Source of the DNA: a virus
Direction: 5' to 3' (one strand)
IMG/VR virus record: IMGVR_UViG_3300048134_000198
Length of the DNA: 44,377 nucleotides
Shown: piece after piece, positions 36,432-38,876 of the stretch
How positions within the stretch are numbered: position 1 is the first letter of the stretch
Layout of the letters: every line of letters begins with the position of its first letter
The notes under the pieces: model-generated
What the model was told of the DNA's origin: nothing
Seen by the model: the letters and a program-made list of their open reading frames with translations, nothing else
Database searches by the model: none
Made by a program: the position numbers and the translations under genes

Positions 36432-36473
36432 TTAACCAACACTGGAGTGGATAGCGGCAGCAGTGTTGGTTAA
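36432..36473. repeat. perfect 13-bp inverted repeat TTAACCAACACTG-N16-CAGTGTTGGTTAA upstream of cdc6
   Basis: Direct reading. Confidence 0.8.
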
Positions 36474-36531
36474 GGCCGAGGGGTCGGAATTCACCCGGGG
36501 TGTTTTATCGCGAGGGCGTGCAGCCAGAACC

Positions 36532-37590
36532 ATGATCACTCGGCCTCGGGTCTTCGAGGACGACCACCTCCCCGACACCCTCCTCCACAGGCACACCGAA
36601 AAACGGGAGCTGGCGCGCGGGTTCGAACCGATCACGCGCGGCAATCCCAGCGAGTACGTCCTCCTCGCCGGCCCCTCAGGGGTCGGCAAGACCGCGCTCG
36701 CAAAGAGCGGCCTTGAGGACGTCAGCGACTTCGGGCAGGTGGACACCGGGTTCGTGCGCGCGATGGGGAAACGCACCGGGTCGATTCTCCGTGACATCAT
36801 CGACGAGCATCCCAGCGACGTGGGCGTGTCGCATTCGACGCCGGTCGAGGCGCTCCCCGAGCTGCTTGCGGACGCAACCCAGCGGCCGTACGTGGTCGTC
36901 CTCGACGAGGCCGACGACCTCCCCAGTACGGACGTGCTTGATGCACTGTCGCGGTGTCGGTGGGTGTCTGTCGTCGTGGTCACGCACGACCAAACCAGGT
37001 TCGAGTCCCGTACTGATGCGCCGTTCAGTATTCGGCTGCAGGTGGATCGCTTTACCAGCGCGGAGCTGGCGGACATCCTTGAGGCGCGCGCTCAGGAGGG
37101 ACTGCAGGCGGGGGTGGTGTCTCGCGGCCAATTAGAGTCCATCGCGGATACCGTCGCTGGCGTTGCCCGCTGGGGCATCCAGTCGTTGCGGGCGGCCGCC
37201 GAAATTGCTGATGAACGCGGGCATCCGACCATCGAACCCAGTGACGTCCAGGACTGCTACCAGCGCGCCCGCGGCCGGATCCGCGCATCGAATCTCGAGA
37301 GCCTGCCCGTGCATCACCACGTCCTGTACGAGATCGTCCGCGAGGCTGGAGCGTGCTCGGGTGGGGAGGTCCACGACCGGTATGAGCGTATTGCCGAGCG
37401 CGTCTACGAGGGGCTACCCGTCGCGCCAGTCGGGAAACGGAGTCGCCGAAATAAGCTCGCGAAACTCGGCGCGTACGACTTAATCGAGATCGTCGAGGAG
37501 AGGAACCAGCGCCAGTACCGTGTACTCGACGACGGATTGGAGTCTAAGCACGTGGACCTCAGCACACTGCCAGTCCGAGATTGTACGTAA
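36532..37590 (+). CDS. cdc6: Cdc6/Orc1-like AAA+ initiator
   Basis: Walker A GPSGVGKT, Walker B VVLDEAD, sensor-2 region GVARWGI, C-terminal wH; TTTTAT ~24 nt upstream. Confidence 0.9.
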   Translation: MITRPRVFEDDHLPDTLLHRHTEKRELARGFEPITRGNPSEYVLLAGPSGVGKTALAKSGLEDVSDFGQVDTGFVRAMGKRTGSILRDIIDEHPSDVGVSHSTPVEALPELLADATQRPYVVVLDEADDLPSTDVLDALSRCRWVSVVVVTHDQTRFESRTDAPFSIRLQVDRFTSAELADILEARAQEGLQAGVVSRGQLESIADTVAGVARWGIQSLRAAAEIADERGHPTIEPSDVQDCYQRARGRIRASNLESLPVHHHVLYEIVREAGACSGGEVHDRYERIAERVYEGLPVAPVGKRSRRNKLAKLGAYDLIEIVEERNQRQYRVLDDGLESKHVDLSTLPVRDCT

Positions 37591-37602: not shown

Positions 37603-38616
37603 TTAACAGAGATGCTCCCAGGTTCCTTCTGCGTCGAACTTCGGACAATCTCCCTCATCGATTTCAGTAGCTGACATCCGCACTGAAGTAGAGATCTCTT
37701 CCGCCTCGGGTGTAATGCCATGTTCCTGTAACTCACAAATGATTCCCACTAAACAGCCAGAGACAAGAGGGGCAGCGAAGCTTGTCCCGATCTGTGGTTG
37801 AATCGAGTCTGTATCTGCACCGAGAATATAGATAACCGGGGCTAAGACGTTCGGGGCGGCATTATGATAGGAGACGTTTCCCGGCCACGGGACTTCTCGA
37901 CGGTTATCCAGACAGGCTTCCGTTGAACAGCACCCATTCTGTCCACAGAAGGGGCCGTTAATCTCATCGCCATCTAACCACCACTGGCCAGAATCCTCTC
38001 CCCGAATTAATGGCTCCGTACAGTGCGAGAGGTATCCACCAACACCGATGACAGCGTCGTTTGTAGCGGGACAATGAACCCCTATGCGAGTATTCGAGTT
38101 GTCCGAATTCCCCGTCGCGGCTACAATAGTCATATCGTCACCACGTACGGCGAGTTCGGCTTCTCGGCAGAGGCTACAGAAGCCGTAGCAGTCGTGGTAC
38201 GTACCTGCAGAGATATTGAGGACATCGACTCCTGCTTCAGCGGCGTCTACGATTGCCTGAATAGTATCGCTCCGGGAACCCGCCCACTTGGTTCCGTCTT
38301 CTGTCTCGTGTTCGTCGATTATCTGGAACGTGCTGAAGGTGGCGTTCGGGTTCTGGGTCGCAATTATGTCGAATACGTTACGTCCGTGACCGATCGGGTC
38401 CGTTTGATCGTGGTCGACGTAGTCATAGGTGTGGTCAAAGGAGAAAGTCTCAGCGAGATCTGAGTCCGGCTCTCCGAGAGAATCGATAACGCCGACGTGA
38501 ACTCCAGCACCGTGATCTTGGGATACACCGGCGTTCAAGCTCTTGAGCTGCGACCGATGAACGAATTGCGCAAAGTCAGCTACATGATCGAATCGGTCCG
38601 GTGCTCGAAATTTCCC
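37603..38616 (-). CDS. S8 (subtilisin-family) serine protease catalytic domain, probably reached by -1 frameshift
   Basis: VIDS (D), GHG (H), ATGN (oxyanion N), GTSFAAP (S); frame open from 38634 with no ATG before the catalytic Asp. Confidence 0.85.
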   Translation of the reverse strand, partial: GKFRAPDRFDHVADFAQFVHRSQLKSLNAGVSQDHGAGVHVGVIDSLGEPDSDLAETFSFDHTYDYVDHDQTDPIGHGRNVFDIIATQNPNATFSTFQIIDEHETEDGTKWAGSRSDTIQAIVDAAEAGVDVLNISAGTYHDCYGFCSLCREAELAVRGDDMTIVAATGNSDNSNTRIGVHCPATNDAVIGVGGYLSHCTEPLIRGEDSGQWWLDGDEINGPFCGQNGCCSTEACLDNRREVPWPGNVSYHNAAPNVLAPVIYILGADTDSIQPQIGTSFAAPLVSGCLVGIICELQEHGITPEAEEISTSVRMSATEIDEGDCPKFDAEGTWEHLC

Positions 38617-38876
38617 TGGTTGAGCTGCGTGACGTCAGCTTCATCAAGTTCTACAGAGAGCACACCGGAAAGGTCACAGACGGCATCGATTTTGGACTTA
38701 GGGAGTTGGGCCTTGACCGTCGTCCGACCGAGGTGGTCCTCAACGTCGCCGTCCAGTTCGGTGAGCGCCGTCGTGAGTTCATCGCGATCGCCGTCATACC
38801 CGATGAGCAGCGTGACGCGTTCGTCGCTCTCGCTGCCCTGTAGGTCGCGGACCTCTTGATCGATGAACTCGGGCAT
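38580..38876 (-). CDS. I9-like propeptide/protease-inhibitor domain, 98 aa
   Basis: beta-alpha-beta-beta-alpha-beta pattern ending GVLSVELD, as in subtilase propeptides; directly upstream of the S8 domain; TTTAAC ~25 nt upstream. Confidence 0.65.
   Translation of the reverse strand: MPEFIDQEVRDLQGSESDERVTLLIGYDGDRDELTTALTELDGDVEDHLGRTTVKAQLPKSKIDAVCDLSGVLSVELDEADVTQLNQGNFEHRTDSIM

Follow-up and report, generated by a model that had tools for sequence, protein, structure and literature searches.

We examined a gene module on the minus strand of IMG/VR virus record IMGVR_UViG_3300048134_000198, a haloarchaeal tailed-virus-like element of 44,377 nucleotides (nt), the whole of which is referred to here as the window. 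The module consists of two overlapping reading frames (Table 1): open reading frame A (ORF-A), which encodes a small acidic protein, and an S8 frame, which encodes a subtilase and lies at -1 relative to ORF-A. The S8 frame opens at 38634, directly past a TGA (38637-38635), and has no stop until 37603. The 3' part of ORF-A contains the heptamers G_GGA_AAT (38616-38610) and A_AAT_TTC (38613-38607), which overlap and both have the form X_XXY_YYZ in the phase of ORF-A. A slip on either heptamer gives the same product of 424 amino acids (aa), with the junction ...QGNF/RAPDRF.... These features, namely the 98-aa ORF, the overlapping heptamers, the -1 offset of the S8 frame, its opening at 38634 and its uninterrupted course, had been described in an initial annotation of this DNA, and each was confirmed from the sequence. 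The same applies to the absence of an ATG before the catalytic Asp codon and to the start chosen in the ORF track, a TTG (38538), which is the sole candidate. The annotation had further remarked that the locus is more AT-rich than the virus core, in agreement with a G+C content of 0.55-0.59 at 37-39 kb and of 0.63-0.67 over most of the window. Within the window, XXXYYYN heptamers occur at a rate of 0.0016 per position. The numbers expected by chance in the 17-codon overlap are 0.027 for in-phase heptamers and 0.002 for a tandem XXXYYYZZZ.

Table 1. Features of the ORF-A/S8 module and their positions in the window.
Feature	Position	Strand	Description
TATA-like box ATTTAA	38902..38907	-	26-31 nt 5' of the ORF-A ATG; read from the sequence
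ORF-A	38580..38876	-	98-aa acidic protein, 0-frame product; ATG at 38876; ends ...CAG GGA AAT TTC GAG...TAG
Overlap with both frames open	38583..38634	-	52 nt in the window
Tandem slippery sequence G_GGA_AAT_TTC	38607..38616	-	Two overlapping in-phase heptamers in the ORF-A frame
-1-frame part of the predicted transframe product	37603..38610	-	44-codon linker/N-terminal helix, then Cys-rich S8 subtilase domain; stop TAA 37605-37603
TTG	38536..38538	-	Sole ATG/GTG/TTG in the S8 frame before the catalytic Asp, 26 codons past the site; gene caller's start
Catalytic Asp codon GAT	38482..38484	-	44 codons past the GGG of the slip site
Catalytic His codon	38386..38388	-	Invariant in alignments A1, A2 and A7
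Oxyanion Asn codon	38107..38109	-	Invariant in alignments A1, A2 and A7
Catalytic Ser codon AGC, GTSF motif	37780..37782	-	Invariant in alignments A1, A2 and A7

The initial annotation had set conservation of the heptamer and of the frame offset in homologous pairs as a test of programmed frameshifting. Homologous loci were taken from plasmids (L001-L003), species genomes (L005-L009), metagenomes (L011-L018) and contigs encoding single protein matches (L022-L031). The close family comprises 17 distinct loci with 35-52% protein identity; some of the counts below cover 15 loci. In all 17 close loci, an ORF-A of ~90-100 aa overlaps by 28-112 nt with an S8 frame at -1, and 15 of the 17 carry G_GGA_AAY in phase at the same codon. 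In a more distant locus (L017, the same as L018; 29% identity), G_GGT_TTT was found in phase. Several plant luteoviruses and enamoviruses use G_GGA_AAC as a proven site of -1 slippage. The tandem form G_GGA_AAT_TTN is present in the window, L011, L013 and L024, and the form G_GGA_AAC_CCN in L002 and L016. Of the two annotated heptamers, the first is conserved (as G_GGA_AAY) in 15 of the 17 close loci, and the second (A_AAT_TTC) solely in the window's subclade. The conserved heptamer and offset strongly support a programmed -1 frameshift, and they back the core claim of the annotation that a ~424-aa pro-protease would be made in this way besides the free 98-aa protein.

We considered whether the conservation of GGA-AAY merely reflects that of a Gly-Asn dipeptide, and rejected this explanation on the basis of internal controls. 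The Gly codon at the site was GGA in 15/15 loci, compared with 26% of the Gly codons in these genes, and the codon before it ended in G in 15/15 loci, with a variable amino acid (E, Q or S). The S8 domain contains two equally invariant Gly-Asn dipeptides (the oxyanion GN and a W.GN motif); at these, all four Gly codons were used and the full heptamer was found in 3/32 cases. This free codon choice at the control dipeptides shows that the slip site is conserved at the nucleotide level, beyond what the protein requires. In the window, the W.GN motif (CCG GGA AAC) itself contains a second in-phase G_GGA_AAC, at 37876-37882 on the minus strand. This copy is probably incidental, and the heptamer at this place is kept in just 2/16 homologs.

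Stop codons in different loci delimit the position of the frame change. In L016 the -1 frame becomes open at the GGG itself (0 codons before it) and in L014 1 codon earlier, and the 0-frame stop lies three codons past the GGA in L011, L022 and L025, so that the change is confined to ~10 nt (about GGGAAAYNNN) containing the heptamer. Translation of the site as -1-frame 'Gly-Lys' codons was rejected, since L016 and L014 have a stop 0-1 codon earlier and no start codon precedes. The distance from the site to the catalytic Asp was 44 codons in 16/17 loci and 48 in L025. Upstream of the site, the wobble position of the 0 frame was the most variable (0.70 vs 0.44 and 0.40); downstream, over codons 12-44, the wobble position of the -1 frame was the most variable (0.66 vs 0.44 and 0.35). 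Read in the -1 frame, the linker shows visible peptide conservation that begins at the site. By these alignments, the -1 frame is under purifying selection downstream of the slip site.

The AlphaFold2 model of ORF-A (predicted local distance difference test score, pLDDT, 78) has a beta-alpha-beta-beta-alpha-beta fold. Its tail is disordered from residue 86, and the slip site is encoded within that tail. The top Foldseek matches in the PDB were the propeptides of subtilisin, CspB and Tk-SP, and nearly all of the best matches were subtilisin-type, with root-mean-square deviations of 1.5-2.2 A over 62-66 columns and E-values of just 0.01-0.1. The sequence of ORF-A gave no match to the Pfam I9 family (PF05922) at E<=1; homologs that are 39-48% identical to the ORF-A of the window carry precomputed matches to PF26036 'Peptidase_inhib_put'. 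The fold thus points to ORF-A as a subtilisin-propeptide-like domain, N-terminal to the S8 domain. The label 'I9-like' given to ORF-A in the initial annotation holds for its fold and fails as a Pfam I9 sequence match, and the statement that the protease lacks a signal peptide goes back solely to a reading of the acidic N-terminus.

The -1-frame product matched Pfam Peptidase_S8 (PF00082) with an E-value of 2.5e-15. Its AlphaFold2 model, linker included, reached a pLDDT of 91 and a predicted template modelling score of 0.93; in this model the linker is a confidently predicted N-terminal helix that packs against the S8 domain. This S8 model matches subtilisins with a target-normalised template modelling score (TM-score) of about 0.7. 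All four residues of the annotated D-H-N-S set are present, the Asp being near-invariant in A7. An Asp-His-Ser triad in subtilase order, an oxyanion Asn and a modelled subtilisin fold identify the protein as an S8 peptidase. Nearest by sequence are processing-type S8 enzymes, namely CylA, intracellular serine proteases and PatA/PagA. In an alignment to subtilisin BPN', the slip site lies ~10-12 residues before the equivalent of the mature N-terminus, and by these coordinates it would correspond to the C-terminal tail of the propeptide. The extra Cys residues mentioned in the annotation recur in the close family, where seven Cys and one His are invariant in the S8 domain (A2/A7), in the motifs H.C.G.C, VHCPA and CG..GC.....C and as a single Cys. 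In a protease that is apparently cytoplasmic, such invariant Cys and His residues suggest metal binding rather than disulfides.

Close relatives gave no fused form: the 33 S8 homologs found by search were all 215-356 aa long and none was a ~420-aa fusion; their called starts are scattered, and some fall past the catalytic Asp. More distant relatives differ in how the two parts are joined. The ORF-A alignment was used for an exhaustive profile search of 1.84 billion representatives, which gave 157 matches. Among the matches listed, the best 150 of the 157, all were 64-194 aa long except P0161, a 449-aa protein whose single ORF spans a PF26036 and a Peptidase_S8 domain. P0161 is 33% identical to the S8 protein of the window (E 6e-41), and the ORF-A profile matches at its N-terminus with 95.8% probability; it also has a weak CspB_prodomain match (E 0.0023), below the cut-off. 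The domain order is the same in both proteins, and the distance from the end of the prodomain to the catalytic Asp is 63 residues in P0161 vs 60 in the predicted 424-aa product. The DNA of P0161 has no heptamer at the homologous place. P0161 is colinear with the predicted transframe product and shows that a fused architecture occurs naturally. In-frame fusion of the homologs, named in the initial annotation as an outcome that would contradict it, was found in this one distant relative and in no close one. A 226-aa ORF-A-containing protein, recovered by a word-index search for longer proteins, has no S8 domain and was rejected as a fusion.

Three other distant loci have separate genes. In L031, the ORF-A stop is followed two codons later by an ATG in the same frame; in L026, a TTG start overlaps the ORF-A stop; and in L027, the genes do not overlap and each has its own ATG. 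The family thus comprises three architectures, fused, frameshift-linked and separate, with the frameshift-linked form dominant among its haloarchaeal members. A scan of viral contigs (IMG/VR) gave a sole match, L004 2485-3751, which is a distant AT-rich single-ORF S8 and was rejected as a family member. The L004 S8 protein is 367 aa long and has an N-terminal propeptide-like region, and a small propeptide-like ORF lies next downstream.

These comparisons are best explained, with a probability of roughly 0.85, by a programmed -1 ribosomal frameshift that is real and conserved and that joins the propeptide-like protein to a cytoplasmic subtilase. The module would then be one transcription and translation unit with two decodings. 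The TATA-like box probably serves as promoter for an mRNA with a short leader or none. An (A/T)TTTAA-type box recurs at equal distance 5' of ORF-A in most homologous loci, which fits a single mRNA of this kind with ribosome entry at ORF-A. Ribosomes would start at the ORF-A ATG (38876), and most would finish in frame to give the 98-aa protein, which has the subtilisin-propeptide fold. Some would slip back by one base on G_GGA_AAT_TTC (38616-38607) and continue in the -1 frame. The transframe product would be a 424-aa cytoplasmic pro-subtilase, composed of the prodomain, a 44-residue linker and the Cys-rich S8 domain. The I9 propeptide of subtilases is both a folding chaperone and a tight inhibitor. 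By analogy with this established biology, the covalent prodomain would fold the protease and then be cleaved off, and the free ORF-A product would serve as extra inhibitor (or chaperone) in trans. With a free inhibitor in trans, the frameshift efficiency would set a fixed ratio of inhibitor to enzyme.

Several observations weigh against programmed frameshifting. Two of the 17 close loci, L012 and L023, carry GAT TTT C at the position of the heptamer, which leaves just a U run. RNAalifold found no consensus structure downstream of the site in the window's subclade, and in the other subclade just an invariant long-range hairpin without compensatory changes or covariation; the downstream hairpin of the window itself was not better than shuffles (z about -1). 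The sole experimentally shown archaeal -1 frameshift is that of fucA1, according to a 2021 review (PMC8211752). In the window's subclade, 6/7 loci have a TTG 24-26 codons past the site, at which additional internal initiation may occur. Finally, the separate genes of the distant L026, L027 and L031 show that the covalent link is not obligatory in this protease family. As to other downstream signals, an Rfam search for a stimulator gave no match, and strong local hairpins past the site were seen in L022 and L005 only. The octamer CTCCCGCC is near-invariant in nucleotides ~13-20 nt past the heptamer in the GGGAAAC subclade (L001-L016). The TCCC inside CTCCCGCC is complementary to GGGA in the slip site and could base-pair there; the alternatives are that the octamer encodes Leu-Pro-Pro of the -1 frame or is an RNA signal.

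The subclade TTG and the separate genes of distant relatives, where a two-gene layout is real, both speak for the alternative of two independent genes. ORF-A would then be a free inhibitor or chaperone, and the protease would be translated from TTG 38538 or by termination-reinitiation past the ORF-A stop, with no frameshift. We regard this as unlikely. Independent initiation at TTG 38538 had been named in the initial annotation as an outcome that would speak against frameshifting, and the TTG is indeed kept in the window's subclade, but it is not conserved across the family. In 7/15 loci, the -1 frame has no ATG, GTG or TTG at all before the catalytic Asp, so that independent initiation is impossible there, and the first start codon of L002 falls past the Asp. 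Moreover, upstream of any candidate start, 24-44 codons of the -1 frame show protein-level conservation and wobble periodicity. Two independent genes would also leave unexplained both the frozen synonymous positions of G_GGA_AAY and the fact that the -1 frame is always open exactly from the heptamer.

A join at the RNA level, by transcriptional slippage or editing with gain or loss of a base at GGGAAATTT, would draw on the short homopolymer runs that make up the site. These runs are just three bases long, however, whereas known transcriptional slippage requires at least about seven consecutive A or T (established; reviewed in PMC5009743), and the conserved feature is a phased X_XXY_YYZ, which is meaningful solely for tRNA re-pairing. 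This explanation therefore appears very improbable. Least probable of all, and contradicted by the comparative data, is the reading as a pseudogene, in which a once-fused pro-protease gene would have suffered a frameshift mutation or a sequencing error: although a fused relative (P0161) exists and homopolymer runs are indel-prone, the same -1 offset occurs at the same codon in 17 independent loci from isolates, plasmids and metagenomes (35-52% identity), both parts are still under purifying selection with intact catalytic residues, and a truly broken copy looks different, as in L003, where an insertion element splits the S8 gene. The S8 gene in L003 (4310-5977) and L008 (Natribaculum breve plasmid CP095391) is interrupted after ~residue 250. 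The insertion carries a 446-aa transposase-like ORF on the opposite strand, and the remainder of the S8 gene lies further on; this copy has the appearance of a truly broken gene.

Programmed frameshifting at this locus would be new as a recoded gene family, not as a mechanism. The closest logic is that of the IS3 family of insertion sequences (e.g. IS911), where OrfA is a small 0-frame regulator, OrfAB is the -1 transframe active enzyme containing the OrfA domain, and the shift efficiency sets their ratio. The IS3 system differs in that its enzyme is a bacterial transposase, its sites are of the A_AAA_AAG type and its stimulators are defined. The subtilisin I9 propeptides (pro-subtilisin E, the BPN' prosegment, Tk-subtilisin and CspB) share the fold of the ORF-A model and the usual spacing to the catalytic Asp. 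In contrast to these, ORF-A has no Pfam I9 match, the prodomain lies in another frame and is predicted also to occur free, and the protease is apparently cytoplasmic with seven invariant Cys. The Aeromonas sobria protease ASP with ORF2 (PDB 3wqb), a separate chaperone/prodomain, has the same layout as the distant L026, L027 and L031; in the window and its close relatives, however, the protease part lacks a start of its own and would depend on the frameshift.

Among known frameshifted genes, fucA1, the alpha-L-fucosidase gene of Saccharolobus solfataricus, likewise has a ~40-50 nt -1 overlap with an X_XXY_YYZ heptamer, and the full-length enzyme needs the shift (PMC8211752). It differs in that the gene is split in few strains, other orthologs being full length, and in that its short N-terminal ORF has no known role. 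In the diverged haloarchaeal family described here, the genes are split as a rule; their heptamer is G_GGA_AAY, and their 0-frame product amounts to a whole folded domain. The tail assembly chaperone G/GT of tailed phages also has a conserved -1 shift, by which short and long proteins sharing an N-terminus are made at a fixed ratio. G/GT and the module are unrelated in proteins and function, and the module lies in an early or accessory region, not in the tail block, and is found also in chromosomes and plasmids. For archaea, the 2021 review lists as predictions the tail-chaperone genes of haloarchaeal viruses and a Mg-chelatase (PMC8211752). The viruses for which the tail-chaperone frameshift is predicted include HVTV-1 and HCTV-1/2/5 (PMC8211752, PMC5009743), and host ribosomes are therefore expected to be capable of shifting. 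Full-text literature searches found no paper on frameshifting in subtilases and nothing relevant for haloarchaeal proteases, and a large 2016 review of frameshifting makes no mention of subtilisin (PMC5009743).

The module would thus extend recoding in archaea to a whole gene family in which the frameshift is apparently the conserved, selected state, unlike the strain-limited fucA1. It would also be a new way to express a subtilase, with the prodomain both free and fused from one start codon. Members are present in the cultured haloarchaea Haloterrigena turkmenica, Halomicrobium katesii, Natrinema salsiterrestre and Halomontanus rarus and can be studied directly beside the genetically tractable Haloferax, which makes the family a natural test bed for the slippery sequences and stimulators on which archaeal ribosomes act. 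For the Haloterrigena copy, no coding sequence is listed. This missing entry, together with the scattered or late called starts and the split or truncated genes, indicates that the family is systematically mis-annotated by gene callers and pipelines.

The genomic neighbourhoods of the module are diverse. In Halomicrobium katesii (L007 1-6987, NZ_KB905378), it lies between hsdR (874 aa) and hsdS of a type I restriction-modification locus. In L028 (3001-12579), it is directly 3' of a 637-aa AriA/GajA/OLD-like ABC ATPase and 5' of the BREX genes brxA, brxC/pglY and brxB. VapBC pairs adjoin the module in L029 and L025, and the PADLOC candidate families PDC-S02 and PDC-S70 in L006 and L014. The module lies between two integrases in L006 and on plasmids in L001-L003. 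No neighbouring gene is conserved, which marks the ORF-A/S8 pair as a self-contained mobile module. Compared with PADLOC, the S8 domain gave weak partial matches only (IetS, 1.2e-5 over 36 residues). A megablast of the window against phage records returned just short matches to Halorubrum viruses, and none for the S8 half.

These gene neighbourhoods suggest a conflict or accessory role for the module. The roles proposed in the initial annotation, in a toxin-antitoxin or abortive-infection system or in the cleavage of a repressor, are speculation; the low frequency of the shift and the excess of inhibitor assumed there are likewise conjectural, as is inhibition of the protease by the free product. 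More specifically, but with considerable doubt, the module could act as a self-contained protease switch in conflicts of viruses with hosts or of mobile elements. It would resemble a toxin-antitoxin pair built on a protease, with a stoichiometry set by recoding. The frameshift would then fix the ratio of free prodomain, as inhibitor, to pro-protease, and disturbed translation or prodomain stability, for example upon superinfection, would shift this ratio and release an intracellular, Cys-rich, site-specific subtilase. If this were true, a recoding-controlled protease would join the known archaeal defence and counter-defence systems. Finally, an Orc1/Cdc6-type AAA+ gene adjoins the module in the window (36463-37590, plus strand, convergent) and in L013 (611-1651, same strand, upstream), and this shared neighbour hints at related mobile-element backbones.

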